A DNA stretch of 64,000 nt, taken from positions 34-64,033 of the forward strand of contig JBIIRD010000028.1 of the NCBI GenBank assembly GCA_044341745.1. Direction: 5' to 3'. Below are positions 13,109-40,574 of the stretch, in pieces (position 1 is the first letter of the stretch; each line of letters begins with the position of its first letter). This DNA comes from Prosthecobacter sp. Lineage in GTDB: Bacteria; Verrucomicrobiota; Verrucomicrobiia; Verrucomicrobiales; Verrucomicrobiaceae. Both the position numbers and the translations under genes were made by a program. The notes below the pieces were generated by a model that made no database searches, was not told where the DNA came from, and saw only the letters and a program-made list of their open reading frames with translations.

Positions 13109-15808
13109 TTACGGGGCGGCGAGCTGGGCGGTGCCTGCTCCTCCATCCGGTCCCGAACTCAGGAAGAAGCCGTGGGTGTGGGGGGCTTCAGGTGCATGTG
13201 CCTGAAGCAGCACGCCCATGAAGCTGACCTTCTTGGTCTGACCGGTCGGTGTGAAGGTGCCCTTGTAGGTGCCTTTGGCCGTGTCGATGGACAGGGTGTA
13301 GCTGTTATCAGCGGGGGTCACTTTGTCGGTGGCGGAAACCGAGACATTCTTGGTCATGGAGATGGATGGCTTGCCGCCTTCAAAGGAAAGCTCAGCCGCG
13401 CCGGCCCCCAGCCCAAGGGACGAGTTGAAGGTCGTCGTGCCGTCATAGTGCATGCCATCCCCGTCGACCTTGATGCCGTTAGGCCAGCCCGCCGTGTAAA
13501 CGGGGGTGGGCTTGGCCGATGCCGGACGGAACCACAGTAGGTCTTCGCCAGTGATGTCGCCGTGGGCCGTGCCAAATTCCAGAGGGCCGCTGATGGATCC
13601 TCCGCCTGAATACAGGGAGGCGAAGAAGGGCATGAAGTTGCCATGGGAGAGCGGGGCGCTTGCCGTCACGGTGGTGCCGTCGGCCAGGGTGGCGGTGATG
13701 GATGCAATGCCCGTCGGCGAGACGGTCACCGTTCCAACTCCGTCGCCCTGGGGAAATTGGGTGGCGGTGTAGCCGTTGTTCGGGTCTGCCTGACGGGGGA
13801 AGGCCAGGGTGTAATAGCCGCTGGTCGTCTTGTTCAGCAGGGCGGTGGGCTTGAGGTCCTTGCCATTGTAGTAGGCGCGGTCGGCCTCCACGAAGGAGAA
13901 GTTAACGCTGTCCTTTTCACTGAGGATGCCCTGAAGCTTGTTGGCGCCTGCCACGAGCGGGTTCATTTCGACGCCGAGGCTGAGGACGAACGAGGGTTTG
14001 CCCTTCCTGGGAAGAATGAGGGTTTCGGCAAGATCCTTGCCAAACAGCGCCTGGCCGGAGCTGGCAAAGGTGATGTTGGTGATCGAGAATTTCTGACCGT
14101 CGATCTGGATGCTGCCGGAGCCCGTTCCCTTGTCGGTGACGGTGATGTTGATGAAGCCTTCTGAAGCATTGCTGGGAGTGGTGGAGCCGCCTGCGGTGAG
14201 AAGGCCGTTGAAGACGCCTTTGACGCCTGGGAAGGGAGTCGCGCGGAAGTGAGCGACGAGAGTCAGGCCTTCAGAGAAGGTGAAGCTGAGGATGGGTGAG
14301 CGGTCACCGACAAGGATGCCTTGGTTGCTTTCCCAGTAGTCGAGAATGAAGCCTGGTTTGGCGACGGCGCTGAGGGTGTAGGTGCCGCCGATCTGGTAGG
14401 CGTTGCCGGCTTTCAGGCCGCTGATGCTTCCCTTGGCGGTGTCACCCGGCGCGACGGTGGCGGCAAGCGAACGCATTTTGACGGAGGTGAAGAGACGGGT
14501 GGCGGTGGCGGAGACATTGCCGTTCACGTCGATGGCCCTGGCATGAAGGGTGTTGAGGCCGCTGACAGGGGTGACGACGGTGTTCCAAGAGCTGGAGGAG
14601 ACGGCGAGGTTCTGATAGGCGCCGCCGTTGAGCGAGAATTCGACATGGTCGATGTCGCTGTCATCCTGGGCAAAGCCCGTGACACTGACGCTGGTGGCGG
14701 ATTCGCCGAAGGAGGCGTTGATGCCAGGGGAGATGAAGGCGATTTCGGGCAGGTTGGTTTCAACCGTTGGAAGAACGTCGATGGAGACGGTGGTGGTGGC
14801 GGGGGTGCCGACAACGGCTCCGCCTGTGGTTGCACCGAGGGAGAGTGTGAAGGTCCTCGTGGTGAGGGCGCCGGCCTGGGGAATCAGAGTGATGGCGACC
14901 ACCTTGCTGGTTTCACTCGCCGAGAAATTCACCGTTCCCGCAGGGGCCGTGAAATCCGTGCCGGCGGCTGCGGTGCCGTCCGTGGAGTTCAAGGCCACCG
15001 TCACCGAACCAGGACCGCCTGACTTGCGGGTGACCACGACGTTGATGGAGGTGGCGCCCTGAAGGGCATGGAACTCCGAAGCGGCAAAGGCCAGGCCGAC
15101 AGAGTCGGTGGAGGACACAGCGACGGTGCCGGTAAGGCCGTAGGAGACTGCCGCCGAGGCGGTGGTCTGACTGGCGTAGTCGACGCCACCGACGAAGATG
15201 GAATAGTCGCCGGGCTGCAGGAAAAAGGTTCCTGTGACCGTGCCATCCGCGACGCCATCACCCAGGATGCCGGGGGCATCTCCGAAGAGGGCGGAGGTGC
15301 CGTCCACGGCATGGCCGACATAGAGGAAGTCGGACAGGTCGGCAAAGGAGGTGCCGGCATCGTTGCCAACCTTCCAGTTGTCGAGCGAACGGTAGCAGCC
15401 CTCCTTGGCCACACCGGTGCGGGTGGCGGTGTAGGAGGCGCTGATGGCGGAGTAGTCGTAATCGGCTCCTCCGCTCAGGTGAGCCAGGCCGCGGAAGAGG
15501 CTGAAGCCTGGCTTGAGTGTGCCGTCCTTGGCGCCGCCGTTGGTGGAGCCTGAGAAGGTGATGGTGACGAAGGAGGCGGTGGCGACATTGAAGCGGTAGT
15601 AGCGCAGCTTGTGGCTGTCACCGTAGTCGGCGTCAGTGCCATCCGCCCAGCCATGGCTGCCGGTGACGGCCTGGTTGGAGATGGTGACGGGTGTGGTGGA
15701 GACGGCGGGGTCAAGGACGCCGAAGTCGCGTCCGGTGTAGCCGATGTGCCCGAAGGCGTGGATGCCGCCCAGCAGGGAGAGGGCGAGGCAGGGGAGTAAA
15801 CGTTTCAT
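13109..15808 (-). CDS. Giant secreted protein 3: N-terminal domain related to the giant-2 repeat, Calx-beta, Ig-like domains, shared C-terminal module
   Basis: 899 aa with a signal peptide (MKRLLPCLALSLLGGIHAFG). Calx-beta-like segment at about aa 238-345 (SVTVALNSTDGTAAAGTDFTAPAGTVNFSASETSKVV). The C-terminal ~375 aa are homologous to the C-termini of the 17215-21159 and 21190-25533 products. Confidence 0.85.
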   Translation of the reverse strand: MKRLLPCLALSLLGGIHAFGHIGYTGRDFGVLDPAVSTTPVTISNQAVTGSHGWADGTDADYGDSHKLRYYRFNVATASFVTITFSGSTNGGAKDGTLKPGFSLFRGLAHLSGGADYDYSAISASYTATRTGVAKEGCYRSLDNWKVGNDAGTSFADLSDFLYVGHAVDGTSALFGDAPGILGDGVADGTVTGTFFLQPGDYSIFVGGVDYASQTTASAAVSYGLTGTVAVSSTDSVGLAFAASEFHALQGATSINVVVTRKSGGPGSVTVALNSTDGTAAAGTDFTAPAGTVNFSASETSKVVAITLIPQAGALTTRTFTLSLGATTGGAVVGTPATTTVSIDVLPTVETNLPEIAFISPGINASFGESATSVSVTGFAQDDSDIDHVEFSLNGGAYQNLAVSSSSWNTVVTPVSGLNTLHARAIDVNGNVSATATRLFTSVKMRSLAATVAPGDTAKGSISGLKAGNAYQIGGTYTLSAVAKPGFILDYWESNQGILVGDRSPILSFTFSEGLTLVAHFRATPFPGVKGVFNGLLTAGGSTTPSNASEGFINITVTDKGTGSGSIQIDGQKFSITNITFASSGQALFGKDLAETLILPRKGKPSFVLSLGVEMNPLVAGANKLQGILSEKDSVNFSFVEADRAYYNGKDLKPTALLNKTTSGYYTLAFPRQADPNNGYTATQFPQGDGVGTVTVSPTGIASITATLADGTTVTASAPLSHGNFMPFFASLYSGGGSISGPLEFGTAHGDITGEDLLWFRPASAKPTPVYTAGWPNGIKVDGDGMHYDGTTTFNSSLGLGAGAAELSFEGGKPSISMTKNVSVSATDKVTPADNSYTLSIDTAKGTYKGTFTPTGQTKKVSFMGVLLQAHAPEAPHTHGFFLSSGPDGGAGTAQLAAP
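13112..14236 (-). other. Shared C-terminal module (copy in giant 3)
   Basis: Begins GVFNGLL...INITVTDKGTGSGSIQIDGQKF and ends TAKGTYKGTFTPTGQTKKVSFMGVLL...HGFFL. It is collinear with the modules at 17218-18318 and 21193-22401. Confidence 0.7.
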
Positions 15809-15920
15809 GAAATAGTTTCGTTAAGTGGATGAAGATCTGAAGGCAGGTGCAGCTCCGGCTTGAGCCAGGGACGTGCAGAATGATGGCGCGTCGTGGCGCC
15901 GGAGATTTGAGCGGAGAGGG

Positions 15921-16328
15921 TCAGGCCCGGCCTCGTGGAGGCCCTTCCGGGGGCGGGTGGTTTCCTGCCTCCGCCTTTTGAATCAAATTTGGATAGGTCA
16001 TGCGGCGTGCCGCCGGAGGCACGATCCGCAGGGTGTCGGCGACCACGGCCTCAAACTTCTTGAGGGAAGGCTTCGCTCCCTCGGCATCCTTGCCGCGGGT
16101 CTTGCGGCCGCCTTCCTCGACGGCTTCGCAGAGAGGACAGGGGTGCTGGCCGTCGAAGGTCTTGGTCACGGCCTGGAAGAGGCCGTCCGACTGTGAGTAG
16201 CTCACGAGCATGGAGGTCCAGGCGATGCCCTGGATCACAGCCCACTGGAGGCCCAGGGACAGGCACATCATCCCGAGGATGATCCAGCGGATCACCTTTC
16301 CCGGGAGGCTGTGGCTGCTTGTCTGCAT
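15921..16328 (-). CDS. Small membrane protein with HPCPLC motif (paralog 2)
   Basis: 135 aa. TM helix LGLQWAVIQGIAWTSMLVSYS, then TFDGQHPCPLCEAV (motif at nt 16128-16145). Clear paralog of the 28658-29086 product. Confidence 0.8.
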   Translation of the reverse strand: MQTSSHSLPGKVIRWIILGMMCLSLGLQWAVIQGIAWTSMLVSYSQSDGLFQAVTKTFDGQHPCPLCEAVEEGGRKTRGKDAEGAKPSLKKFEAVVADTLRIVPPAARRMTYPNLIQKAEAGNHPPPEGPPRGRA

Positions 16329-16338
16329 GACGGATGTT

Positions 16339-17172
16339 TCAGAAGCGCCACAGCACGCTGGTGTGCAGGGTGAAGTCAGGTGCGGAGGGTGTCAGGCCGC
16401 CGCCAACGCCGAGGCGCAGTGAGAAGCCTCCGGGCAGGCCCAGCATGGTGGTCAGAAGGGCCTGATGAGAGCCTTGTTTCTCCTCGAAGTCGCCGAGAGC
16501 CTCCAGGCCGACGGACAGGTCGTGGTTGATCTCATGGCGAAGGCCCAAGGCATAACCAAAACCTGGTTTTCCGCCGTCGCCGGAGACAAAGCTGACCAGG
16601 TTGAGCACCATGCGGGTGCCCTCCATCAGGTCGGCTTCAAGGATGACGCGGGAATGCCAGCCGTTTTCGCCGTGACGATGAATGCCGCCATGGCTGCCGT
16701 GATCGGTCCCGGAATGGCCGTGGGAGTGAGGGGTGGGCGGAGGGGCGTCTGGACCGCTGCCGGTGTCGTGGACGTGGGCGGCGCTGTCCTGGTGCGAATG
16801 CCCGGAGGACTGGGCGAACTCGTAGCCCGTCCACAGGCCGGCTCTGAAGTTCAGCGGTCCGGTCGGCGGCAGAAGGGAGACGACGAACTGAGGTGTGATG
16901 CCGGTGTTGTCCCAGCCGCTCCCATCATCAGCAAATCCCGCCGTCAGGCCGAAGGCCAGGGACGAGGCCAGGCCGAGGTAGAACCCGGGTTCGCTGGAGA
17001 ACTCGCTGCTGTCTCCATCCCTTGTCCATTCGAATCCCGCAATGCCCACGCCACCCATTGAGGATGGGATGGCGCTGTCCTGAACCAGGATAAAATCGCG
17101 TCCATGGTGGCCATGGGCAGGGTGGATGACCCAGACAAGAAGCATGAATACAAAAGGCAGTGGACGCGGCAT
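16339..17172 (-). CDS. Putative outer-membrane beta-barrel protein with His-rich loop
   Basis: 277 aa with a signal peptide. Alternating-hydrophobicity segments and a C-terminal aromatic end (...HTSVLWRF) typical of OMP beta-signals. A central ~53-aa segment carries 12 His. The mature N-terminus is HGHHGRDF. Confidence 0.65.
   Translation of the reverse strand: MPRPLPFVFMLLVWVIHPAHGHHGRDFILVQDSAIPSSMGGVGIAGFEWTRDGDSSEFSSEPGFYLGLASSLAFGLTAGFADDGSGWDNTGITPQFVVSLLPPTGPLNFRAGLWTGYEFAQSSGHSHQDSAAHVHDTGSGPDAPPPTPHSHGHSGTDHGSHGGIHRHGENGWHSRVILEADLMEGTRMVLNLVSFVSGDGGKPGFGYALGLRHEINHDLSVGLEALGDFEEKQGSHQALLTTMLGLPGGFSLRLGVGGGLTPSAPDFTLHTSVLWRF
16651..16809 (-). other. His-rich segment of the putative barrel protein
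   Basis: SSGHSHQDSAAHVHDTGSGPDAPPPTPHSHGHSGTDHGSHGGIHRHGENGWHS: 12 His counted in 53 residues. Confidence 0.9.
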
Positions 17173-17214
17173 GTCGGGCCGGAGGAAGGGGCTCGGTGAA
17201 TGCTGGAAAGGGTG

Positions 17215-20200
17215 TTAGCGCGTGGAGGACATGGTCATGGAAACATTTCCCGAAACCTGGGCCTCTTCTGCTCCGACGGCTGGAAACTCGTTCATGAGGA
17301 AGTAGCCGAGCCCCACAAGGCCCTCGCCATCATTCACAATCACGGCCTGATAGGAGGCTTTGCGGGTCACGCCGGACTTCTTCACCTGGAAGGAACCTTG
17401 GAACAGGCCTGAAGTGGAGGTCAGGGCGAAGGTGACGGAGCAGGGATTGGCCGGAAAACGTGCCGCGCCGGATGCCGAAAGCGAGCCATTCACGTCCGGG
17501 GACGCCTGCACTCCGTCCAGCGCCTCATGATCCAAGGCGAGGTGAAGGCTGGACGCCGGGGGGGCAACGTATTTCCCGCCGATGACCTCGAGGTCCACGG
17601 GGCCGAAGCCGTTTGGATAAAGCTTGGTGGCTGTGGGGGTGCGGTACCAGGAAGCCTGGGATCCCTCCAGGCGGTGCTCAGGGCCGCCGTCCATGACGAG
17701 GCGCGCCAGGAAGGATCCTGAAAGCGAGGTGACCGCCCGCAGGACGGATGCCTTGCTGTTCCAGACCATGCCTGTCCTGGAGCGCAGCACCTGCTGCAGA
17801 CTGATGCCCCCGTCGTTTTCCACGGGCCGGGAGAAGGTGAGCGAGGTGTCGTCGGCAAGCTTCACCGTGCCGGTGGCGAGGCCGTTGGCCGCAACCTGAA
17901 AGCTGCCGAGGCCATGGCCTGAAGGTGCATCGGCTTCAACATCGCGCAGGCGGAGGGCGAAGGTGTGCCTTCCCTGGTAGGGGCCTGGAGCGGTGCTGGG
18001 CAGCCTGAGTTCCAGGGACACGGCTTCCTGGTCATCATCAAGCTCGCCCGTCATGCGGCCGGATGAGATGTTGTAGTTCAGCGTCAGGCTCAGGGGCTGT
18101 CGGCCGGGCCTTGTCAGGATCACGGTGCCAGAGGGCCTGCCGTCCAGTCCGGTCAGGATGCCGGAGAAGGTGCGCCGGCTGTCACCGAGCTGCATTGTGC
18201 CGGTCAGCGCCCCCAGTTTGGACACCGTGACGGAAAGGCTGCCGCCGAGCAATTCATTCAGCGAAATGGAACGCGGGATGTTGCCGGTGAAGGTTCCGAC
18301 CAGCCCTGTGGGAAGCGCGTTGATCACCAGTGTGGTGCGGAAAGGCTCGGAGCGCCCTGCTGCGTTGGCGACTCGGATGACGAGGGGGAAGCTGCCGCTT
18401 TTCAGTGGGCGGCCGGAGATCACACCGGTGGAGGTTTTGACGGAAAGCCCGGGCGGCAGGCCGGTGACATTGACAAGGGCAGGGGCGTTGTCGACGACTA
18501 GCGTGTGGTTGTAAGGCTGGCCGATCAAACCCACAGGCAACGGCCCTGTGTCGGAGATGGAAGGGGTGTCGAGCACCAGGACCTGGGCGGAAAGGCTGTC
18601 CACACGGCCGGCGGCGTTGCGGACCCGGACGTGATAGAGGCCGGAATCGCGAGGGGAAGCCCCTGCCACTTCAAGCACGGGCACCACGGCGTCATTGAGT
18701 TGAACGCCGTCCTTGAACCATTGGTATTCGAGTTCGGGCCCGCTGGCCGCCACGCGCAGCTTGAAGGTCTTTCCATTCACCAGGGTGATGTCTGTCGGCT
18801 GGGAGGTGATTCTGGGTGCGGCGAGCACGGGAGCCCTCGTGGTGTAGCTGTAGCGGAAGCCCTGCCGGTTCGGGTTCGTGGCCGGTGCGTTGCTGCCCAG
18901 GGCGAGGGTGTAGTTGCCGGGCGGCAGGGTCCAGGCACGGCTGATGCGTGAGCGGGTGCTGTTGTCGACATGATCCATGTAGGTCAGGTCCTCGGCCCAG
19001 TCGATGTTGCCACGGTTGTTGTAGGTGTGGAAGTCGCCGCCGTCGTTGTCCCAGCCCCTCCAGAGGGTCATGCTGGGAAACATGCTGCTGGTGTCGGCCT
19101 TCCGGTCCGGATTGTCCACGCTCGGCCAGGGCACGCTGGCATCGCGCTCCACGGTGAATTCAAATGTCAGCGTCTGGGTGACGGTCAGGGCGATCCAGTT
19201 GGAGGTGTGGGTCCAGCCGACGGGCTGGCTGCCCTGGCCGGGATTGCCGAACAGGGCGTTGTCCTCCCAGCTCCAGGCGCCCACATGATCGCTGTACTTG
19301 CCACTGCTGCTGTCCGGCCCAAGCACAAAGGTCATGTTGTAGCCAATGCCCCCTGTCGATGGGGCACCTTCAGGATAGGTGTTGGCGACAGGATCCCCTC
19401 CCGAGGCGCCCGGGTTTCCTGTCATCACGGAATAAGACATTTTGAAGCCCTGGCGGTTTGGGTTGATTGCCGGCGCATTGCTGCCCAGAACCAGGGAATA
19501 CTGACCGGCCGGCAGCCTCCAGGTGCGGGAGATGGTGGTGTCGGTGCTGTTGTCGATGTGATCGACGTAGCTCAGGTCTTCGGCCCAGGAGACGTGGCCG
19601 CGGTTGTTGTAGGTGTGGGAGTCGCTGCCGTCATTGTCCCAGCCCTTCCAGAGGGTCATGCTGGGGAACATGCTGCTGGTGTCGGCCTTGCGGTCCAGAT
19701 TGTCCATGCTCGGCCAGGGCACCTGAGCGTCCCTTTCCAGGGTGATGGTCAGGAGCGAGGCTTCCTCCAGGTTGACGGCAGTCCAGCAGGAGGTGTGGGT
19801 CCATCCGACAGGCTGGGCGCCCTGGCCGGGATTGCCAAAGAGGGCGTTGTCCTCCCAGCTCCAGGCGCCGACATGGTCGGAGAGGCTGCCGGAGTCACCG
19901 TTGCCAAGCAGGAGGGTGTGGGCATAACCGACACCCCCGGTGGAGGGGGCGTCCTCCGGGTAGGTGTTGGGCACAGGGTCGGACTTGGAAACTGTTGCCG
20001 AACTGTAGGTCAGCTTGAAGCCCTGGCGGTCCAGGTTCGTGGCCGGTGCATTGCTGCCCAGGGCCAGCGTGTAGTCCCCGGCGGGCAGGAAGTAGGTGCG
20101 GGTGATGCTGGTGGCGGTGCTGTTGTCGTAGTGGTCGCGGTAGGTGAGCTTTTCGGCCCAGCTGACATTGCCCCGGTTATTGTAGCTGTGGGAGTCGCCA

Positions 20201-21159: not shown

Positions 21160-21189
21160 TTCGTGGAGGGGGAGAGGTTTGAAAAGCGG

Positions 21190-24100
21190 TCAGGGATTCG
21201 TGTCGGACAGCTCGACACGGCCGGAAAGGATGCGGGTGGTCGTCGGAGTTGTTTTGGGGGAGGCGGCAGGCATCTCTGCGAGGTTGAAGAAACCATAGCC
21301 AGCGGGGCCGCCGCCATCGTCGACAATCATGCCCAGGAAGGTGGCGCTGCGCGGGAGGTCCTTGGCCGGAGATACGCTTGTGTCGGAGTCCACCAGCTTG
21401 AAGCTGCCCTGAAAGGCCCCGGTGACGCCGGGTGTGAACGTGGTGCCGCTGCCGGGGGTGAGGGTGAGCTTCACCTGGCCCGGGTTGCTATCCGGCGGGT
21501 CCAGTTTCGCGGGGCTTCCCTTGAGGATTTCAAAGGGGTTCCAGTCCAGGCGTGTTGCGGGTGAGGGGGCCCTGCCTTCCCGGAAGGTCAGGCGTGCGTT
21601 GCCCGCACCGGCGAGAAGACCCATGGCAATGTCGTCCTTGCCGGGAATCTCATAAGCACCGCCCAGGGTCACGAGACTGAGCGGAGCCGGGTTGAGCGGG
21701 TCAAGGCTCAGAGGATCAAAGCCGTCCTTGTAGCTGCGAGTGGTGGCAGTTTGCCGGGGCTTGTACCAGCTCATGGCGGAGGTGTTGAGGCAGCCCGCTC
21801 CACCACCGATGATCTCCAGGGTGCCAAGCAGGGAGCCCGTTTTTGAATAAAGCAGGGTGAAAACGGGGAGGCGACCGCCCTGGCCAAGCGTGCCTGAAAG
21901 AGTGACAGGTGCGGAATTGTCGGCCAGACGCACCACGCCGCTGACGGCGCCCTTGCTGCTGACCTTGAAGGCTCCAAAGCTGTGACCCTGGGGTTTGTTG
22001 TCATCGCCGAGGTCCCCGGCACCGAGTTTCATGGCGAAGGTGTAGCCGTTCACATAGGGGGCGGGGGCGGAGGCGGGAAGCCGCGCATCCAGGAGCAGGG
22101 TGACACCGTCGGACTTGATCTCGCCGGTGAGACGCCTGGATGAGCGCAGAAGGGTGAAGGTGATGTCGATGTCAGGAAGATCCTTGCGGATGATGGTTGC
22201 CTCACCCGCGGGGTCCGCATCAGGCAGGACGGCGAGCTCGCCCTTGAAGCTGTGCTTGACGGTGCCGAGGCTGAGGGTTCCGGAGAAGGTGCCGAGTTTG
22301 GTTGTGGTCACCGTCAGCAGTCCTCCAAGATTGCGGTTGAGCGCGGCTGAGGCGTGACGTGGCACGATGCCCTGGAACACACCGAGGGAATCCGCAGGGA
22401 AGGGGTCAACCCTGACCTCCTTGACCTTGTCGTAACCGGTGCCCGCAGCGTTGGCGGCCTTGATGCGGACGAAGTAGGTTTTCGCGGTGGTGGGCCTGCC
22501 GGTGATGGCGCCGGTGGCGGGGTTGAGCTTCAGTCCTGCGGGCAGGTCCGTTGCAAAATATTTGGTTGGGCCGTTGCTGGCGCTGACCTGGGCGGTGTAG
22601 TTCTGCCCGACGATCGCGTCAGGCAGGAGGAGGTCATCCATGACGGGCCAGGGAAGGATGGTCACGGTGGCGTCCTGGCTGGTCGATCCGCCGGCGTCAT
22701 TGTAGACACGCACGGAGTAGCTGCCGGCCTGGGCGGTGTCGAGGGTGGTGAGCACCAGGGTGCTCTTGGTGGCGCCACTGATTTCGGAGGTGCCCTTGCG
22801 CCACTGATATTTCAGGCCGGTGCCGCTGGCGGTGACGGCCAGGGTGACCTTGGTGCCCTGCTTGACGGTGACGGAGGCGGGATGCTTCTTGATTTCAGGG
22901 ACAGGCAGGACGTTGACCGTGGCGATGCTGCTGGTGACGCTGCCCGCGCCGTTGGTGATGACGACCTTGTAGCCGCCGCCGTCGGAGGTGGAGGCCGGGG
23001 CTAGGTCGAGCACGGGGGAGTCACCGCCGACGTTCGTGGTGCCGCGCTTCCACTGGTAGGAGAGTCCCATGCCGTCCGCGATGACCTTGAGCTGAACCGC
23101 CGCTCCGGGAACCACCGTGGTGCCGACAGGCTGTCTGCGGATGATGGCCTTGCCGTTGACCAGGCCGGGGTTGGGATCGTCCTTGTCGAGGAAGCCGTCT
23201 TCGTCCTCGTCGCCGCCAAAGCGGCTGCCTGCGCCGGGAAGCACACCCATGAAGCTGAGCCAGTCACCGGAGGCGAGGGAGCTGAGGAGTGCGGAACGGG
23301 ACAGCGGCGCGTCGGAGGCCCTGTCGGAACGATAGGCGCCTGATTTCCAGAGGTAGGAGCGGGGCTCGCCGCCGATGAAGCCGCGGGCGACGAGGTCGCA
23401 GTCGTAAAAACCGATGGCGTCCGGGATGGTGCGGGATTCGAGCAGGGCGAGCTCGGAGGTGACCGATGGCTGGGATCGGTTGGCGGTGGTGACGGTGGGG
23501 CCATAGCCGACCGTGGGTGCGGTGCCGGTGTCGAAGCAGTTGAGGAAGGCCGTTACGTCCGCGAACTCCTGCGGCGTCTCCAGCAGGTCGAGAACATAGG
23601 GATGGACGATGGGCATGACATAGCCTGTGCCGTCATGAAGAAGGCCGAAACCGCTGAGCGACTCGGCGCCGGCGCGACCATCATAAAACTGACGCTGATA
23701 GAGGGTGCGGAGCGGCGGGTTCTTGACCGGCTGGCTCAGGCCCGCCTCCTGCGGCAGGTCGATGTTGTGGTTGCTGCCGTCGGGGTGGATGTGGCAGGTG
23801 ATGCAGTGGCTCTTGACGTGGCTGTTGAACAGGTCGCGTCCCTCCTCGGGAATGCCGGAGCCAAGCGTGGCGGGCAGGCTGCGGTCAAGGTTGCGGTTGG
23901 GGTTGGCGTGATGAACGACGGACATCAGGTAGTCCGCCATGTTGTCGATGTCGTCCTTGGACAGCTCGGAGCCGCCCATGAGGTTGTGGAAGGTGCCGTT
24001 GAAGCTTTGCAGCGTCGGCTTGTCCCCCCGCCAGTGGAAGGGGGCTCCCGCCTGCATGCCGCGCAGGGTCTGCGTGGTCATCGGCCCCTTCATCGGGTGC

Positions 24101-25533
24101 ATGTCATAAGGCCGTGGTGTCGTGTCATGGACGGAAAGGTTGGCGCCAAAGACGGTGACCATGCTGCCGCCAGGGTCACCGAGGTCCCAGGCGAGGCCGT
24201 CACGGTCGGCGTCGAGGTGGCACATGCCGCAGGAGTTGGTGCCGTTGCCGGAGAGACGTGCGTCAAAAAGCTGTCCGCGCCCCTTGCGGATGAGAGCCGG
24301 GACCGGGTCGCTGGCGCCGAGGGCGACCTCGGCCTCCAGCGCGAAGCTCGTGGTGTTGATGACGGAGACCGAGCTGGAGATCTTGTTGAGCGTGTAGAGC
24401 CTGCCCCGCACCTCGTCGAGCACCAGGCCGCGTGGGCCGCGCATGGCGGAGGCGCTGGTGTCCGCGCCGGTGCGGATGTCGATGCGCTGAAGCACGCCGC
24501 CGGTGGCCGGATCGATCTTGGCGATGCGGTCGGAGGCGAAGGCGGCGGTCCAGGCGCTGGAGCCGTCGGCGGAGAACACGAGGCTGGCCGGCTGGGCGAG
24601 AGCGACAGAGCGTGCGGGCTCGTTGGGAAGGGTGTTGTAGTCGATGCCGGGGTTGAGGTCGTGAACCGTCACGTCGGAGGGGGTGACGACGGAAAGGCGG
24701 CTGTCGACGAAGTGGCCGCGCAGGGTGGGTTCGAAGCGGACAAGGTTGAGCGAGTCGGTGTTGGCGACCCAGAGCTCGTCCGTGCCAGGGCGGCAGGCGA
24801 GGTCAAAGAGGTTGGTGCCGACGTCACTGATGTAGCGGACCACGGCGCGGGTGGTGGTGTCGATCTCCGCCACGTCCTGGTCGAGGATGATGTTAGGCAC
24901 ATCGGGGTGGCTGGCGGCGACGATCTGGGCGGTGTCGGGGGCTTCGGGCAGGGCGGGATTGGCTGGCGCCGGCTGTGGTGGCGCCTTCTGGCGGGGCAGG
25001 ACGGTGGTGCGGTTTCCGGAGAGGAGGAAGGCGGCGTAGACGCGGGTGCCGTCGGGGCTCAGGGAGAGCGCGTGGGGATAGACGCCGTTGAGGGGGATGG
25101 TGGCGACGGCGGCGCGGGAGGCGGCGTCGTAGACACGGATTTGGTTGGCGCGTGCGCAGGCAATCCAGGCCTGGCCGCCGACAAAAAGCACGTCGGTGGG
25201 CTCGTCGCCTGTGCGCAGGGTCTCGATGACGGCGCTGGTGGAAAGGCTGAGGATGGAGACGGTGTCAGCGGCCTCGTTGACAACCCAGACCTCGTCATTG
25301 GTGCGGGCGCGGACGGTGACGGGTTCGAGACCGACCGGGATCTGGGCCACCCGGGACGGGGTGGCGCCGCTGAGGTCGAAGACCGTCACCCTGGCGCTGG
25401 GCGAGTCGGCGGCGATGAGGCGGGAGCCGTCGGGCGTCATTGCGAGAGGGTGTACCTGGCGCGCCTCGAAGTGCCGCCAGGCGGCTCCGGCATGGCCGGC
25501 CAGGAGCAGGGGGATGAGCAGGAGTGTTCTCAT
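21190..25533 (-). CDS. Giant secreted protein 1: YncE/YVTN-type beta-propeller, di-haem cytochrome c peroxidase/MauG-like domain, two I-set Ig domains, shared C-terminal module
   Basis: 1447 aa with a signal peptide. Propeller-like repeats (LAMTPDGSRLIAADSPSARVTVFDL, LSLSPDGTRVYAA...). Two CxxCH motifs: CGMCH (nt 24217-24231) and CITCH (nt 23791-23805). A CCP-like PFHWRGDKPTLQSF block. Ig repeats (LSYQWKRG..., LKYQWRKG...GSYSVRVYNDAG). Confidence 0.85.
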   Translation of the reverse strand: MRTLLLIPLLLAGHAGAAWRHFEARQVHPLAMTPDGSRLIAADSPSARVTVFDLSGATPSRVAQIPVGLEPVTVRARTNDEVWVVNEAADTVSILSLSTSAVIETLRTGDEPTDVLFVGGQAWIACARANQIRVYDAASRAAVATIPLNGVYPHALSLSPDGTRVYAAFLLSGNRTTVLPRQKAPPQPAPANPALPEAPDTAQIVAASHPDVPNIILDQDVAEIDTTTRAVVRYISDVGTNLFDLACRPGTDELWVANTDSLNLVRFEPTLRGHFVDSRLSVVTPSDVTVHDLNPGIDYNTLPNEPARSVALAQPASLVFSADGSSAWTAAFASDRIAKIDPATGGVLQRIDIRTGADTSASAMRGPRGLVLDEVRGRLYTLNKISSSVSVINTTSFALEAEVALGASDPVPALIRKGRGQLFDARLSGNGTNSCGMCHLDADRDGLAWDLGDPGGSMVTVFGANLSVHDTTPRPYDMHPMKGPMTTQTLRGMQAGAPFHWRGDKPTLQSFNGTFHNLMGGSELSKDDIDNMADYLMSVVHHANPNRNLDRSLPATLGSGIPEEGRDLFNSHVKSHCITCHIHPDGSNHNIDLPQEAGLSQPVKNPPLRTLYQRQFYDGRAGAESLSGFGLLHDGTGYVMPIVHPYVLDLLETPQEFADVTAFLNCFDTGTAPTVGYGPTVTTANRSQPSVTSELALLESRTIPDAIGFYDCDLVARGFIGGEPRSYLWKSGAYRSDRASDAPLSRSALLSSLASGDWLSFMGVLPGAGSRFGGDEDEDGFLDKDDPNPGLVNGKAIIRRQPVGTTVVPGAAVQLKVIADGMGLSYQWKRGTTNVGGDSPVLDLAPASTSDGGGYKVVITNGAGSVTSSIATVNVLPVPEIKKHPASVTVKQGTKVTLAVTASGTGLKYQWRKGTSEISGATKSTLVLTTLDTAQAGSYSVRVYNDAGGSTSQDATVTILPWPVMDDLLLPDAIVGQNYTAQVSASNGPTKYFATDLPAGLKLNPATGAITGRPTTAKTYFVRIKAANAAGTGYDKVKEVRVDPFPADSLGVFQGIVPRHASAALNRNLGGLLTVTTTKLGTFSGTLSLGTVKHSFKGELAVLPDADPAGEATIIRKDLPDIDITFTLLRSSRRLTGEIKSDGVTLLLDARLPASAPAPYVNGYTFAMKLGAGDLGDDNKPQGHSFGAFKVSSKGAVSGVVRLADNSAPVTLSGTLGQGGRLPVFTLLYSKTGSLLGTLEIIGGGAGCLNTSAMSWYKPRQTATTRSYKDGFDPLSLDPLNPAPLSLVTLGGAYEIPGKDDIAMGLLAGAGNARLTFREGRAPSPATRLDWNPFEILKGSPAKLDPPDSNPGQVKLTLTPGSGTTFTPGVTGAFQGSFKLVDSDTSVSPAKDLPRSATFLGMIVDDGGGPAGYGFFNLAEMPAASPKTTPTTTRILSGRVELSDTNP
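21193..22401 (-). other. Shared C-terminal module (copy in giant 1)
   Basis: Begins LGVFQGIVPRHASAALNRNLGGLLTVTTTKLGTFSGTLSLG and ends GVTGAFQGSFKLVDS...PRSATFLGMIV...GYGFFNLAEMP. Confidence 0.7.
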
Positions 25534-25539
25534 GACGGA

Positions 25540-25845
25540 TCAGCCTTTGACCGGGTCTAACGAACGAATGTTGTATATCTTCGCCTGGGCGCCCAGGGCC
25601 TTCACGGCCTCCTCACGGGTGATCGGGCGGGAGGAGATGATCTGGAGCCTGGGCAGGCCGCCCTTTTGCGGAGAGAGAATGCGGGCCGACTGCACGCCCT
25701 TCACGGTCATCATCGCGGCCTTCACATGGCTGGAGCAGGCGCTGCAGAAGATGCCGGCCACCTCGCCCTCGTAGGTCAGCGCGGGCTCGGCGGCCGGGGC
25801 CAGCCCAACCAACAGTGTAGAAACAAGAAGGAGCAGGGTTTTCAT
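25540..25845 (-). CDS. Exported heavy-metal-associated (HMA)-like small protein
   Basis: 101 aa with a signal peptide. YEGEVAGIFCSACSSHVKAAMMTVKGV resembles the GMxCxxC ferredoxin-like HMA fold. It ends 6 nt before the start of giant 1. Confidence 0.6.
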   Translation of the reverse strand: MKTLLLLVSTLLVGLAPAAEPALTYEGEVAGIFCSACSSHVKAAMMTVKGVQSARILSPQKGGLPRLQIISSRPITREEAVKALGAQAKIYNIRSLDPVKG

Positions 25846-25859
25846 GGCGGGATGGTGGT

Positions 25860-26564
25860 TCAGGAATGGGGACGGCCGAGGAGCTGGTGGACGTGCTCGT
25901 GCAGCCGCTCGCCCATCAGCTTGGCGATTTCAGGCTGGGGATGAAAGACGGAGTAGTAGCCGCGGACACGGCCCCGGCCGTCGATCAGGGCGATGCGCAG
26001 GTCGTGCTCAAACTCGTCGTCGGGGGTGATTCGCTCCTCCACGGGGATGGGTTTGGCGGCGGTCATGCCGACTTCGTCGGTCATGAAGCTCCAGAGCCTG
26101 CCCCGGTCGCCCGTGATAAACCACCAGGGGGAGTTTTCCTTGGCGCCGACGGCGTCGGCATAAGCCCTGAGCAGTGCGACATTGTCGCGCTCAGGCTGGA
26201 TGGCCACGGAGAGCATGTGGAATCCCGGGTGGCCGGCGAACTCCTGGTTCAGTTTTTGAAGCTGGGCGGTGACCGCGGCGCAGCCGTGGGGGCACTGGGT
26301 GTAAAGGTAGGCCGCCACGATGACATTGCCCCGGAGATCCGAGAAGCGGACGGCCCTTCCGTTTCTTTCGATGGCTTCAAGATCGCCCTTGATCGTGGCA
26401 TAGACAGGCAGATCAGCCTTGGGAAGGACAGTCTGAAGCACGCGGTTGTAGGCAAGGCTGAGGCCGATGATGAGGGTGATCGCCCCGCCTGTCAGCAGCC
26501 AGAAGCGCACCGGGCGGAACTCGGCGGTTTCTGGAAGGGATCTGCTGGCGGCGGGTGTGCTCAT
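25860..26564 (-). CDS. SCO1/SenC-family copper chaperone / thiol-disulfide oxidoreductase
   Basis: 234 aa with an N-terminal membrane anchor. Thioredoxin-fold block VIVAAYLYTQCPHGCAAVTAQL with CxxxC, plus the downstream conserved His region (FEHDLRIALIDGRGRVRGYY). Its start overlaps the upstream stop (ATGA at 26561-26564). Confidence 0.8.
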   Translation of the reverse strand: MSTPAASRSLPETAEFRPVRFWLLTGGAITLIIGLSLAYNRVLQTVLPKADLPVYATIKGDLEAIERNGRAVRFSDLRGNVIVAAYLYTQCPHGCAAVTAQLQKLNQEFAGHPGFHMLSVAIQPERDNVALLRAYADAVGAKENSPWWFITGDRGRLWSFMTDEVGMTAAKPIPVEERITPDDEFEHDLRIALIDGRGRVRGYYSVFHPQPEIAKLMGERLHEHVHQLLGRPHS

Positions 26565-27169
26565 GGGACGGGCGGATGCAGGGGCTTGGTGGGGGTGCGC
26601 CTGGAGAGCTCGTCCAGCGTCCAGGGGGTTAAACGACCCGGGTTGGCCTTGCGGATTTGCCGAATGGTCACGTCATTCACCTGGAGCGGCCTTTGTCCCC
26701 AGGTGCGAAGCACAAAGGTGGCTACGTCGGCAATCTCCCGGTCATTGAGCCAGGTTCCAAGCCCGGGCATGATCGGGTGCCTGATGAACGTGCCAGGAAT
26801 GGGTCCCGAGACACCGTGCACCAGAATGGCGGCAAAATCCACCTCCCTGCATCCTTGCAGCCAGGGTGAGCCGACAAGGGGGGTGCCAAGTCCTGGCAGC
26901 CCCAGGCCCGCTGGTTCATGACACATGGAGCAGGCCCTTCGGTAGACCGCGGCTCCCTGCATCATCTGTCGTTCTGAGGTGGTCATCACCGGGAACAGGT
27001 CATGAACAAGGTTCCTGGGTGCAAGGGCGTTCGCTGCGGTCAGGCCTGCCGCCAGCACAAGATGAGCCGCCAGCATGCCCCGGAATTTCACGCCCTGGCC
27101 ACGACAGGCGCGCAGTCCCGTGCGGGACCACGCCGTCTGGCATGGCGGGATGAAGGATGGCGGTGTCAT
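26561..27169 (-). CDS. c-type cytochrome (mono-haem, class I-like), copy C
   Basis: CSMCHEPAGLGLPGLGTPLVGSPW... with a distal ...IMPGLG region. The start is uncertain. The ATG at 27169 forms an ATGA overlap with the upstream stop; alternatives are 27217 or 27076. Confidence 0.75.
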   Translation of the reverse strand: MTPPSFIPPCQTAWSRTGLRACRGQGVKFRGMLAAHLVLAAGLTAANALAPRNLVHDLFPVMTTSERQMMQGAAVYRRACSMCHEPAGLGLPGLGTPLVGSPWLQGCREVDFAAILVHGVSGPIPGTFIRHPIMPGLGTWLNDREIADVATFVLRTWGQRPLQVNDVTIRQIRKANPGRLTPWTLDELSRRTPTKPLHPPVP

Positions 27170-27882
27170 GACTTGGGCCCGGAGAGGGGGACTTGAAGCA
27201 AACTTGGTTCGTCCCACATGGCGGCGCGCTCCTTTTCGGCCGCCCTGACCGCCTTGACCTGCTCGACCGTCACGGCGCCGGCCTTGTTGCCAAAGGCGTT
27301 GCGCGCATAGGTCAGCACCGCGGCGATCTGATGGTCCGGCAGGGCGCCCTGGGGAGGCATCATCGGTGCTGGTGTTGTGAAGGGCGTGCCGTTGACCTTG
27401 ATCGGTCCCTGGAAGCCGTGCAGCACAATGCGGATCAGACGTTCAGGCCCGGGAGCCGTGACCCAGTCCGAGCCCGCCAGGGGCGGAAACATGTTGGGCA
27501 GGCCGAGGCCGGTGGGCTGATGGCACACGGCGCAGATGGTGGTGAAGAGGGTCTTTCCTTCTTCATACCCCGGCAGTGAGGCGCTGTCCGCGACGGCAGG
27601 TGCCGGCGCTGAGGGAGGTGGAGTGCTTCCTGCGGGAACCGGACTGGCTGCGGCCGCCTGTGCTGCTGCAGCGGCGGTAGCAGTGGCGGCAGGACTGGTG
27701 GAGGAAGCCTTGTCAGCCGGTTCAGGCTGTGGTCGTGCGGCTTTGAAACCGCCGATCAGGAAGGCGACGCCCCAGAAGGCTGCGAAGCCTGCCACGACGA
27801 TTCCGAAGGCGCTGAATCCGATGCCGGCGATTCTGGCGCCGGTGCTTTCCGCTGAGTTTGGAGAAGTGGAATGATGGCTCAT
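27166..27882 (-). CDS. Membrane-anchored c-type cytochrome, copy B
   Basis: 238 aa. TM helix (IAGIGFSAFGIVVAGFAAFWGVAFLIGGF), an Ala/Pro-rich linker, then CAVCHQPTGLGLPNMFPPLAGSDW...PMMPPQG...VLTYARNAFGNKAG. Confidence 0.85.
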   Translation of the reverse strand: MSHHSTSPNSAESTGARIAGIGFSAFGIVVAGFAAFWGVAFLIGGFKAARPQPEPADKASSTSPAATATAAAAAQAAAASPVPAGSTPPPSAPAPAVADSASLPGYEEGKTLFTTICAVCHQPTGLGLPNMFPPLAGSDWVTAPGPERLIRIVLHGFQGPIKVNGTPFTTPAPMMPPQGALPDHQIAAVLTYARNAFGNKAGAVTVEQVKAVRAAEKERAAMWDEPSLLQVPLSGPKS

Positions 27883-27888
27883 GTGATC

Positions 27889-28371
27889 TTACTCCACGGG
27901 AATTTTTTCCAATTCGGCCTCGGTCCACATGGCCGTGCGTGCCTTTTCCGCCTCGCGGATCGTCTTGACCTGCTCCGGGGTGACAGCTCCGGCCTTGTTG
28001 CCAAAGCTGTTGCGCACAAAAGTCAGCACCGAGGAGATCTGCTGATCATTCAAGGCGGCGCCCTGGGGTGGCATGAGCGGGGCCGGCGTGGTGAAGGCCT
28101 TGCCGTTGACCTTGATGGGGCCGGTGACGCCATGCAGGACCATGCGGATGAGGCGGTCAGGTTTCGGAGCCGAGGCCCAGTCTGAGGCGGCCAGGGGAGG
28201 GAACATGTTGGGCAGGCCCAGGCCGGTGGGCTGGTGGCAGGCGAAGCAGACCTGCATGTAAACCTGCTGGCCCTGGGTCATGACCTCGGGGGAGATAGGC
28301 TCCTGGGCCGGTGCCAGGCCGGAGGCCGATACTAGGACGATCATTGAAGAGAAAAGAGAAGTGCGAATCAT
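27889..28371 (-). CDS. Periplasmic c-type cytochrome, copy A
   Basis: 160 aa with a signal peptide. CFACHQPTGLGLPNMFPPLAASDW...PLMPPQG...VLTFVRNSFGNKAG. Close paralog of copy B. Confidence 0.88.
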   Translation of the reverse strand: MIRTSLFSSMIVLVSASGLAPAQEPISPEVMTQGQQVYMQVCFACHQPTGLGLPNMFPPLAASDWASAPKPDRLIRMVLHGVTGPIKVNGKAFTTPAPLMPPQGAALNDQQISSVLTFVRNSFGNKAGAVTPEQVKTIREAEKARTAMWTEAELEKIPVE

Positions 28372-28657
28372 ATACGGGACAGGTGGGGGTAGGGTGTCGG
28401 TCAGAATGGTTGCCGTCGTGCGCTGGCATGGGCTCCCGTTCAGGGAGTGGCAGTGCGGATCGGCCCCGCTGGGGGGGAGGATTTCAAGCCTCAGAAAAGC
28501 GCAGCTTGAACACGGACCGGTTTATCAGGATGCGGCGGGATGAGCGAGCCCTGGGAGGGCCGATGTTCTCAACCCGGGTGATGAGACCGGAAGGTTGAGT
28601 ATCCCATGGCGCCGGGCGGATGATGCCAGCCTGTGAAAAGGAAGCAGTTCCTGAGGC

Positions 28658-29086
28658 TCAGGCGAGGTCGAATTCGGGGGGAGGGGTGGCCGGGCGTTGG
28701 GAACGCGTGGCCGCCGGGCTGGAGAACGTGCTCCAGCGATTGGGCTCCGAAGGGGGGAAGACAAAATGGGGCACCTCGACCACGGCGAGGGTAAGTTTCA
28801 TCTCCTTCAGCGTTTTCAGGGGAGTCTGATTCTTCCCGGATTCCTGCTCTGCATCCACGCCCTTTTTCACGGCGCGGCAGAGCGGACAGGGGTGCTCACC
28901 GTCAAAGGTGTCGCTCAAGCCTTCGGAGAGCGAACCTTTTTCGATCGAGTAGCTCACGGCCATGCCAACCCAGGCGGCCGACTGCAGGGCCGCCCAGTGC
29001 AGCCCGACCGACAGACACACGGCCATCACGGTCAGCGCGCGCATCAGGCGGAGCAGACTGGGTGTGACGATGCAGTTGTAGCTCAT
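28658..29086 (-). CDS. Small membrane protein with HPCPLC motif (paralog 1)
   Basis: 142 aa. TM helix VGLHWAALQSAAWVGMAVSYS, then TFDGEHPCPLCRAV (motif at nt 28877-28894). First gene of the co-directional cluster. Confidence 0.8.
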   Translation of the reverse strand: MSYNCIVTPSLLRLMRALTVMAVCLSVGLHWAALQSAAWVGMAVSYSIEKGSLSEGLSDTFDGEHPCPLCRAVKKGVDAEQESGKNQTPLKTLKEMKLTLAVVEVPHFVFPPSEPNRWSTFSSPAATRSQRPATPPPEFDLA

Positions 29087-40570: not shown

Positions 40571-40574
40571 GTGG

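Follow-up and report, generated by a model that had tools for sequence, protein, structure and literature searches.

The window analysed here is a stretch of 64,000 nucleotides (nt) from Prosthecobacter sp. (contig JBIIRD010000028.1 of assembly GCA_044341745.1), and the subject of this study is a cluster of eleven open reading frames (ORFs) on its minus strand, numbered g1 to g11 in the order of transcription from 29086 down to 13109. According to profile searches, structure models and comparison with related genomes, the window is fairly likely to hold a MopE/CorA-type copper-handling system in a non-methanotrophic verrucomicrobium, here of the Prosthecobacter lineage. The conserved core of the cluster consists of g1, g7, g8 and g9, and for this core the assignment to a copper-handling system of the MopE/CorA kind can be made with a shade more confidence.

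An earlier note on this DNA, made from the sequence alone, had described the cluster as a candidate undescribed envelope system for the capture of a metal, most plausibly copper, and/or for extracellular redox reactions. Copper is supported as the most plausible metal. However, the statement that no described system has this composition does not hold, as g7 and g8 together represent the MopE-SACCP/CorA-CorB system of gammaproteobacterial methanotrophs (PMC3912023). The core pair is of a known kind, and therefore "undescribed envelope system" overstates the case; nothing specific was found in favour of an extracellular redox system. The MopE/CorA identity of g8, the kinship of the N-terminal domain of g11 to the g8 repeats, the leader-ORF anatomy of g1 and g10 (HPCPLC proteins, after a motif that they contain) and the fact that the C-terminal carrier module of the large proteins is of a generic kind had all been overlooked. 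The features of the core are as follows (all on the minus strand; aa, amino acids; bCCP, bacterial cytochrome c peroxidase).

g1, 28658-29086, minus: 142-aa HPCPLC protein, candidate copper-sensing leader ORF
g1-g2 spacer, 28372-28657, minus: 286 nt, C-rich (C 0.40, G 0.23)
g7, 21190-25533, minus: 1447 aa, propeller, di-haem domain and carrier
g7 residues 1-395, 24349-25533, minus: signal peptide and YVTN/lactonase-type beta-propeller
g7 residues 396-790, 23164-24348, minus: bCCP/MauG-family di-haem domain
g7 residues 791-1447, 21193-23163, minus: two Ig domains, He_PIG and C-terminal carrier module (about 410 aa)
g8, 17215-21159, minus: 1314 aa, four MopE/CorA-type domains and carrier
g8 residues 32-775, 18835-21066, minus: four tandem MopE/CorA-type domains, putatively Cu(I)-binding
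g8 repeats, 20539-21066, 19996-20523, 19423-19950 and 18835-19362, minus: each with GWTH
g8 residues 776-1314, 17218-18834, minus: Ig domain, He_PIG and C-terminal carrier module
g9, 16339-17172, minus: predicted 12-stranded outer-membrane beta-barrel of COG4313/FapF type

Tandem MopE/CorA-type domains and the adjacent di-haem protein

The N-terminal 775 residues of g8 consist of four tandem repeats of about 190 aa, with mutual identities of 62-69%. The Pfam family Cu_bind_CorA (PF18252) matches the whole protein at 35.3 bits (cut-off 27), a score summed over the repeats. In a profile of the four repeats, the GWTHT motif, which is invariant in g8, is aligned on G129-W130-T131-H132 of MopE*. 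A larger profile (A2), comprising 63 sequences of the g8-type repeat, was searched against the whole PDB and retrieved only CorA (4bz4, 5.6e-4) and MopE* (2vov, 6.5e-4); both alignments centre on GWTH, which corresponds to W62/H64 of CorA and W130/H132 of MopE*. Among the 63 sequences, W50, T51 and H52 are invariant, and H26 and H112 are conserved in at least 90%. Meanwhile, an AlphaFold2 (AF2) model of repeat 2 reached a predicted local distance difference test (pLDDT) score of 86.9, and a Foldseek comparison of this model with 350,542 PDB chains placed 2vov (E=3.9e-7) and 4bz4 (E=4.9e-7) at the top of the matches. Because the PF18252 match, the PDB profile matches, the fold matches and the invariant W-T-H agree, we conclude that g8 carries four MopE/CorA-type domains, with the fold and the ligand motif of that family and, we infer, its capacity to take up Cu(I).

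Several points weigh against this assignment. One g8 repeat alone scores 17.2 bits on PF18252 (cut-off 27, E=0.004), a match that covers profile positions 19-76 only. The likeness to CorA and MopE is local, extending over about 50 residues around GWTH, with E values of only about 6e-4, and the TM-scores of the repeat model to MopE* and CorA are moderate, at about 0.55. In addition, the second His ligand of the g8 repeat is probably His112, which sits 62 residues past the Trp of GWTH; the alignments to CorA and MopE* stop short of the His112 region, and its equivalence is not demonstrable by alignment. The copper ligands of MopE*, for comparison, are presumably Kyn130, H132 and H203. Those of CorA are Kyn62, H64, H114 and a water molecule (PMC3912023).

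The g8 repeat also has many homologues that consist of one such domain only; these are 200-300 aa long, and some end in a PEP-CTERM or MYXO-CTERM tail. The presence of single-domain homologues beyond Verrucomicrobiota is suggested only by source labels (MYXO-CTERM, PEP-CTERM). The characterised precedents in methanotrophs are surface-exposed, and their genes, corA-corB and mopE-SACCP, are co-transcribed and copper-repressed, with the di-haem protein proposed, and not proven, as the kynurenine-forming enzyme (PMC3912023). A 2025 review lists the enzyme that makes the kynurenine of MopE/CorA as "TBD".

The counterpart of such a di-haem protein in the cluster is g7. Its propeller has the beta subunit of hydrazine synthase as best solved relative (E=2e-8), and its di-haem domain contains two haem motifs, CGMCH at 435 and CITCH at 577, which are at least 95% conserved in 39 sequences. 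When scanned alone, this domain matches Pfam CCP_MauG (PF03150) at 28.0 bits (cut-off 25.6). A 12-sequence profile of the domain retrieved almost exclusively di-haem CCP-family chains from the PDB, namely hydrazine synthase gamma (1.8e-11), bCCP (1.1e-6), chain 6e1c (1.3e-6; presumably MbnH) and, more weakly, BthA. The second haem is ligated by His/Tyr in MauG and by His/Met in bCCP. In g7 the second haem motif is followed by no conserved Met, and Y612, H644 and Y646 are conserved in the 39 homologues, which hints at a non-Met, MauG-type ligation of the second haem. g7 is regarded as the counterpart of CorB/SACCP and as a candidate maturase for the conversion of Trp to kynurenine. Two observations weigh against this reading: among solved structures, g7 comes nearest to the beta and gamma subunits of hydrazine synthase, not to MauG, and its conserved blocks are ordered differently from those of solved bCCPs.

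As to the order of the blocks, the "LRG...HWRGD" block of g7 aligns with the "LRN...HDG" block of solved bCCPs and of hydrazine synthase gamma; it lies between both haem motifs in g7 and after the second motif in the solved enzymes. Membership of g7 in hydrazine synthase itself was rejected, with 47.3 bits (cut-off 1250) and 42.8 bits (cut-off 560) on the NCBIfam models, and also on context, as there is neither an anammox setting nor an alpha subunit.

Conserved neighbourhood and the candidate maturase

A scan for the repeat motif in one genome per GTDB species gave 55 loci (L numbers below), all of them in Verrucomicrobiota (Prosthecobacter, Brevifollis, other Verrucomicrobiaceae and Limisphaerales). 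About 50 species retain the order g1-g7-g8-g9, down to about 40% identity. The arrangement is not due to chance: of the 38 loci from different species in which it can be judged, 36 have g7 directly upstream of g8. Directly downstream of g8, g9 is found in 24 of 36 judgeable loci, and a g1-like or g10-like gene is located within 3.5 kb upstream of g7 in 24 of 27. The nearest genome is a Prosthecobacter metagenome-assembled genome (MAG; locus L005) with 87-92% amino-acid identity, and the cultured Prosthecobacter dejongeii has SCO1, the HMA protein, the CCP giant, the CorA giant and the barrel in the same order. The proposal of the earlier note that these genes belong together is thus borne out by a neighbourhood kept across Verrucomicrobiota. 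The remaining genes are less constant: cytochromes c occur in 9 of 27 loci, SCO1 and the HMA protein in 10 each, while separate g10 and g11 are confined to the closest relatives, apart from a rearranged form in L015. The cytochromes c, SCO1 and HMA proteins that had been counted as parts of the system are indeed present; however, they have no core role and are accessory, being found in about one third of loci. A point against the copper-system reading is that g9 is absent or undetectable in the distant loci L047-L056.

The pairing of a g7-like with a g8-like gene extends to smaller forms. For example, single-domain CorA-like genes have a g7-like gene directly or nearly directly upstream in all four contexts examined. 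In L034 (Verrucomicrobiae MAG MFD01916.bin.3.63, 6503-11587), one ORF of 1,695 aa joins the propeller, the di-haem CCP domain, one CorA-like domain and cadherin-like domains, and appears from its domain content to be a natural enzyme-substrate fusion. A compact system is present in L063 (GCA_964523105.1, 1242-14660), with the full set arranged as propeller-CCP protein, HPCPLC protein, single-domain CorA-like protein with a PEP-CTERM-like tail and g9-like barrel, in this order. Directly upstream of it are ccoP-like and ccoG/FixG-like cbb3-oxidase genes, and downstream are a response regulator and a histidine kinase, as is likewise the case in L060 and L048. In L001 (GCA_942493005.1, 4706-9616), where two HPCPLC genes stand in tandem, the genes immediately upstream of the cluster encode a DtxR-family repressor, an outer-membrane channel of the Phenol_MetA_deg family and a transporter of ZnuABC type.

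The precedents of CorA-CorB, MopE-SACCP and MbnP-MbnH, the adjacency of g7 and g8 and the natural fusion form the basis for the proposed kynurenine step, in which the MauG-like di-haem domain of g7 would oxidise the Trp of each GWTH. That g7 forms kynurenine from the GWTH Trp of g8 is, in our view, moderately likely. For MbnH, the chemistry has been demonstrated: it forms Kyn174 in MbnP, a pair with a different fold (PMC11951088). As a point against, M. alcaliphilum kept function after loss of the di-haem partner (PMC3912023).

g7 might instead be a small-molecule enzyme, acting for example in NO/hydroxylamine chemistry like that of hydrazine synthase beta-gamma, or in peroxide removal. In that case the cluster would form a redox system, outside the cell or in the periplasm, that draws on the cytochromes c, and the CorA-like proteins would have an accessory role as stores of copper. 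The two domains of g7 have their nearest solved relatives in the beta and gamma subunits of hydrazine synthase; this, the 47 bits on NCBIfam hydrazine_BC and the three co-encoded cytochromes c would fit a small-molecule enzyme. However, the score stands against a cut-off of 1250, there are no other anammox or nitrogen-cycle genes, the cytochromes are optional whereas the CorA-like partner is nearly obligatory, and L034 fuses the enzyme to a CorA-like domain, so that we regard this explanation as highly unlikely and keep g7 as the candidate maturase.

Alternatively, the adjacency could be meaningless: g7, g8 and g11 would then be giant adhesins or surface proteins of an ordinary kind, whose place beside oxidase-biogenesis genes is a coincidence. 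The carrier, together with Ig, He_PIG and Calx-beta domains, is typical of surface proteins with many payloads, and SCO1 and cytochromes c are classic genes of oxidase assembly and respiration. However, the g1-g7-g8-g9 order is retained with or without carrier, SCO1 and cytochromes, and the payload domains themselves are copper-related. The synteny therefore effectively excludes this explanation.

Predicted barrel, leader-like ORFs and accessory genes

The other features of the cluster are listed below.

g2, 27889-28371, minus: exported monohaem class I cytochrome c
g3, 27166-27882, minus: membrane-anchored monohaem cytochrome c with an Ala/Pro-rich linker
g4, 26561-27169 (ATG at 27169), minus: third monohaem cytochrome c
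g5, 25860-26564, minus: membrane-anchored SCO1/SenC copper chaperone, CPHGC motif
g6, 25540-25845, minus: exported HMA-fold (CopZ/MerP-like) protein, CSAC motif
g10, 15921-16328, minus: second HPCPLC leader-like ORF, 135 aa, followed by a 112-nt C-rich spacer and g11
g11, 13109-15808, minus: 899 aa, diverged CorA-fold domain, Calx-beta and carrier
g11 residues 19-235, 15104-15754, minus: putative diverged CorA-fold domain, GDSH replacing GWTH
g11 residues 236-899, 13109-15103, minus: Calx-beta, Big_7, linker region and carrier module (13112-14272)
Carrier modules, g7 21193-22434, g8 17218-18318 and g11 13112-14272, minus: about 380 aa, no match in Pfam, NCBIfam or PDB
Intrinsic terminator, 13054-13082, minus: 12-bp stem with 10 G-C pairs, then T-tract; closes the array

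The AF2 model of g9, built with 43 homologues, is a 12-stranded barrel (pLDDT 83.3) with a disordered His-rich loop at residues 121-170, and its best Foldseek matches are FapF and the COG4313 channel 4rl8 (TM about 0.55-0.62). By sequence, g9 matched nothing in Pfam (including PF13557) or the PDB. The outer-membrane barrel with a His-rich region, which had been surmised before, is thus also predicted by the model and the fold matches. In the family alignment the terminal Phe is invariant, and the HHGRDF motif at the mature N-terminus and a GIHRHGE motif are nearly so. Since five strands precede it, the His-rich loop is probably extracellular in the modelled topology. That g9 serves as a copper entry channel is put forward tentatively, with a chance that we would place slightly below even.

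The HPCPLC family, to which g1 and g10 belong, has 236 members, all annotated as "hypothetical" and none with a Pfam domain, and its profile gave chance matches only in the PDB. g1 and g10 share 35% identity (E=8e-21) and three invariant features: a hydrophobic N-terminal segment, TFDG-H-P-C-P-L-C and a C-terminal Pro run. Arg residues precede the hydrophobic segment in the family. Of 122 members, every one has the CxxC and a terminal PP(P) run that lies 2-7 residues ahead of the stop; in 111 of them, 59-66 residues separate Cys from Pro, over a poorly conserved linker. In most of 28 loci, the g1-like gene is followed by a spacer of 216-400 nt, in a few by a longer one of up to about 950 nt. 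A C-rich, G-poor stretch (C 0.40-0.51, G 0.19-0.27) runs from the 3' third of g1 through the spacer, and the 286-nt g1-g2 spacer may be a Rho-utilisation or attenuation region.

These features resemble those of CruR (Bordetella pertussis Bp2923) and CutF (Rhodobacter capsulatus), two DUF2946 copper-sensing upstream ORFs. CruR stands at the head of an uptake operon that copper represses, and Rho-dependent termination is brought about there by a spacer of 162 nt that contains a C>G "bubble" (PMC9426467). In CutF, where a Cys motif is combined with a C-terminal PPP, copper-induced arrest during co-translational export controls the downstream gene (PMC9973294; bioRxiv 10.1101/2025.02.05.636593). 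Like these, the HPCPLC proteins have about 130-145 aa, an N-terminal export signal, an invariant CxxC and a Pro motif just before the stop, with a fixed Cys-Pro spacing; the gene is the first of what would be a copper-homeostasis operon, and a long C-rich spacer comes next. They differ in having HPCPLC...PPP[R/Q/E] where DUF2946 has CxxC...RAPP, and in the strong conservation of the hydrophobic segment. While the HPCPLC proteins had been taken for structural parts of the envelope, their anatomy instead resembles that of cis-acting copper-sensing leader ORFs, and the view of g1 and g10 as leader-peptide copper sensors, drawn from this analogy, seems to us slightly better than an even guess.

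The following observations count against a leader function. Neither g1 nor g10 matches Pfam DUF2946 (PF11162) even at E<=10, so they are likened to CruR and CutF in their working, not as members of that family; the Cys-to-Pro spacing is 59-66 compared with about 45 in DUF2946. An alignment of 29 post-g1 spacers revealed no conserved sequence, and folding of the g1 and g10 spacer RNAs gave z values of -1.08 and -0.9, which are not significant. A CutF-type stable stem-loop that masks the start site is therefore not supported. In addition, the C>G bias of the spacer is only moderately above the operon background (C 0.375, G 0.268).

It is also conceivable that g1 and g10 are stable inner-membrane proteins, that is, a Cu(I) acceptor, relay or import subunit acting through the His-x-Cys-x-x-Cys motif and a conserved helix. 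The hydrophobic segment is invariant at S26, G28, W31, Q35, A38, W39 and M42, a conservation that exceeds the needs of a signal sequence, and both the missing DUF2946 match and the want of a conserved RNA element after the gene would agree with a membrane protein. However, the terminal Pro run in every one of the 122 members, the Cys-Pro spacing that is fixed over a poorly conserved linker, and the position of the gene, always directly upstream of a CCP, CorA-like or SCO1-like gene with a long spacer between, are hallmarks of CruR/CutF and are hard to square with a transporter subunit. We therefore hold a membrane-protein function to be possible but doubtful, and continue with g1 and g10 as candidate leader ORFs.

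The N-terminal domain of g11 was compared with the g8-repeat profile by hhalign. A 30-sequence profile of the domain gave a probability of 95% (E=1.8e-8); as a single sequence the match is weak (probability 23%). D64 and H66 are conserved in 30 of 30 homologues. After signal-peptide cleavage the mature protein is predicted to begin with His21, which 29 of the 30 share. Judging by these alignments, residues 19-235 of g11 are a diverged, Trp-less relative of the g8-repeat fold. In most genomes such an H-type domain is the first domain of the g8 orthologue and is followed by three W-type repeats; in the lineage of the window, g8 has four W-type repeats and the H-type domain is on a separate protein. 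A Calx-beta domain in g11, noticed before, was also detected by the domain scan. As a separate observation, g9 (HHGRDF) and the g11-type domain (H-I-G-Y-T-G-R-D-F) have in common a highly conserved "N-terminal His ... G-R-D-F" pattern at their predicted mature N-termini, which may represent a histidine-brace-like site or a shared recognition motif.

g7, g8 and g11 each have an Ig/He_PIG region and, as had been recognised from the sequence, a common C-terminal module, here called the carrier, of about 380 aa. Profile searches with it against Pfam, NCBIfam and the PDB gave no match. A total of 6,695 cluster representatives contain the carrier, 4,531 of them at E<=1e-10; the host proteins have 400-5,800 aa, and the carrier nearly always forms their very C-terminal end. 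Its payloads, such as NHL or DUF5122 propellers, PKD and Calx-beta, are mutually unrelated. Because it occurs thousands of times with unrelated payloads, giant proteins of the Planctomycetota-Verrucomicrobiota-Chlamydiota (PVC) group probably use it as a generic carrier, anchor or secretion module. Distant orthologues of g7 (about 900 aa) and g8 lack the carrier. Accordingly, the three giant secreted proteins that the earlier note had presented as the defining trait owe their size to a generic module and do not define the system.

The assignments of SCO1, HMA and CCP domains all hold, that of HMA being below threshold in Pfam and supported by a PDB match. g2, g3 and g4 are monohaem class I cytochromes c, all above the Pfam cut-off. 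g2 scores 45.9 bits on Pfam Cytochrom_C, with CxxCH and the axial Met100 conserved in 16 homologues, and the haem domain of g3 is 67% identical to g2. g5 matches SCO1/SenC at 49.5 bits (cut-off 22.8), and C91 and C95 (CxxxC) are conserved in 22 homologues; the conserved His is missing from the 90% conservation list, possibly owing to distant sequences in the set. g6 reaches 19.9 bits on Pfam HMA (cut-off 24.8), and its residues 28-90 align with the HMA domain of MerA (NmerA, PDB 2kt2) over the whole domain (E=1e-5); C34 and C37 of the CSAC motif are conserved in 15 homologues. The start of g4 is ambiguous (region 26561-27217): a GTG at 27217, the ATG of an ATGA overlap at 27169, or an internal Met before a signal-peptide-like MLAAHLVLAAGLTAANA, from which a shorter exported cytochrome would be made.

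All eleven consecutive ORFs are present at the coordinates given previously, and the gaps of 286, 6, -4, -4, 14, 6, 30, 42, 10 and 112 nt were reproduced from the ORF coordinates. The strong hairpin with T-tract said to end the array was found on the minus strand at 13082..13054. The G+C content at third codon positions (GC3) is 0.70-0.84 for ten ORFs (g6, below the length cut-off of the ORF caller, was left out), and no Shine-Dalgarno-like sequences were found upstream of the cluster genes. The neighbours of the cluster, downstream a 3D-domain protein and an esterase, upstream a divergent xylose-isomerase-like TIM barrel and a TauE protein, appear unrelated to it. An Rfam scan of the whole window yielded two tRNAs only, and no riboswitch or leader RNA. 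Elsewhere in the window, the two tRNA genes adjoin at 56868-57031 (plus strand). Three PSCyt1/PSCyt2/PSD1 (DUF1549/DUF1553) and DUF1501 gene pairs, at 5589-10939 (plus), 38674-43553 (minus) and 43622-48768 (minus), are a PVC-type feature of the window, such pairs being typical of Planctomycetota and Verrucomicrobiota. Two large proteins, at 34678-38184 and 57094-59952 (minus), combine DUF7133 with a C-terminal cytochrome c domain, and one of them also has NPCBM and HEAT repeats.

Proposed copper route and relation to known systems

In the route that we propose, the four CorA/MopE-fold domains of g8 would collect Cu(I), once g7 had acted on their Trp residues. g7 and g8 share the carrier module and therefore should co-localise, and the cytochromes c g2-g4 plausibly give electrons to the di-haem domain of g7. 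Copper would cross the outer membrane via g9, for which the fold is predicted and the transport role and the orientation of the loop are proposed by us. In genomes that have these optional modules, the periplasmic HMA protein g6 and the membrane-anchored SCO1 protein g5 would receive it, probably for cytochrome oxidase, a link suggested by the ccoP-like and ccoG-like genes that adjoin the cluster in L063. g11, the Trp-less paralogue of the CorA domain with its N-terminal His, might offer a second kind of metal site. g1 and g10, going by their anatomy, could couple translation arrest at the C-terminal PPP to downstream expression, as CruR and CutF do.

We lean, by a small degree beyond even, towards acquisition of copper as the purpose of the system. 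The same parts could serve copper protection, in that the surface CorA-like domains and the His-rich barrel would sequester or exclude copper, SCO1 and the HMA protein would buffer it in the periplasm, and the leader ORFs would induce the operon at high copper. CutF-type leader ORFs do induce detoxification genes, e.g. the multicopper oxidase CutO (PMC9973294), many neighbours of DUF2946 genes are efflux or detoxification genes, and multi-site copper-binding surface proteins could act as sinks. However, MopE, CorA and MEALZv2_1030034 are copper-repressed and required for copper supply, neither the cluster nor its relatives contain an efflux pump, a multicopper oxidase or a CopA-type ATPase, the clusters of relatives adjoin uptake systems and cbb3-oxidase genes, and SCO1 is an assembly factor of cuproenzymes. 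A detoxification system is thus rather unlikely. Two general points weigh against the acquisition reading. Acquisition is not separable from detoxification without a known direction of regulation, and while folds, motifs, family relations and synteny are read directly from sequences and models, copper binding, kynurenine formation, localisation and regulation, including its direction, are all inferred.

To our knowledge, MopE and CorA are textbook oddities that have been studied only in a few methanotrophs. The module described here is widespread in ordinary heterotrophic Verrucomicrobiota, with about 55 species-level genomes, and its near-obligate adjacency and the natural fusion point to the di-haem protein as maturase. 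The His-rich outer-membrane channel, the periplasmic HMA protein and SCO1 are candidates for the steps by which captured copper would enter the cell, the HPCPLC leader ORFs are possibly a new sensor family, and the carrier module, with more than 6,000 cluster representatives, is without annotation. Since the cultured P. dejongeii carries the cluster, these proposals are directly testable. Our literature search for MopE/CorA homologues in Verrucomicrobia and for PF18252 returned nothing relevant, and an earlier description elsewhere is possible. Within the literature searched, the following seem to be new: a MopE/CorA-type system in non-methanotrophic Verrucomicrobiota, a tandem multi-site collector, a propeller-bearing maturase, a natural fusion, a Trp-less paralogue domain with N-terminal His, a conserved His-rich 12-stranded channel and a CruR/CutF-like leader family unseen by the DUF2946 model.

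At its most far-reaching, the cluster would be the first recognisable complete kynurenine-dependent copper-capture route, with a surface maturase, a multi-site Cu(I) collector, a second collector derived from the CorA fold in which an N-terminal-His (His-brace-like) site takes the place of kynurenine, a dedicated His-rich outer-membrane channel and periplasmic chaperones, all switched by a new family of nascent-peptide sensors; we offer this as a speculative synthesis that is, on balance, doubtful. In such a route the sensor family could have arisen independently of DUF2946 or diverged beyond recognition, and kynurenine copper proteins, far from being peculiar to methanotrophs, would be a general bacterial strategy, used in Verrucomicrobiota and probably elsewhere.

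Among the known systems, COG4313/Phenol_MetA_deg channels and FapF share with g9 the 12 strands, the length of about 270 aa and the N-terminal segment before the barrel; g9 differs in its 50-residue His-rich loop, the conserved HHGRDF mature N-terminus and the absence of a sequence-level family match. Hydrazine synthase beta/gamma (PDB 5c2v) resembles g7 in that a beta-propeller is joined to a CCP-like di-haem module; unlike hydrazine synthase, g7 has a partner of CorA-like, copper-binding type. The likeness to MbnP-MbnH lies in the use of a MauG-like di-haem enzyme that turns a Trp of its partner into kynurenine and thereby makes a copper site. However, MbnP has another fold and a WxW motif, in contrast to the CorA/MopE fold and W-x-H of g8, and MbnPH is usually encoded beside a TonB-dependent transporter, whereas the outer-membrane partner here is a small 12-stranded barrel.

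The closest relatives are MopE-SACCP (MCA2590) of Methylococcus capsulatus Bath and CorA-CorB of Methylomicrobium album BG8, described as a system of two genes for copper acquisition (PMC3912023). In common with them, the cluster encodes a W-x-H beta-sandwich domain beside a bCCP/MauG-family di-haem protein; in the proteins from methanotrophs this Trp is turned into kynurenine, and the site is completed by a second His. There are considerable differences. MopE and CorA have one domain per protein, whereas g8 has four and its relatives one to four; the identity of g8 to CorA and MopE is only about 15%; and the spacing from W to the second His is 62 in the g8 repeat (with His112 as candidate), 52 in CorA and 73 in MopE*. 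The host belongs to Verrucomicrobiota and is not a methanotroph, the di-haem enzyme g7 has an N-terminal beta-propeller, and both g7 and g8 bear the large Ig/He_PIG/C-terminal carrier. Beyond the two-gene pair, the cluster adds a His-rich outer-membrane channel, a leader-like ORF and a Trp-less paralogue domain, together with the optional SCO1, HMA protein and cytochromes c.

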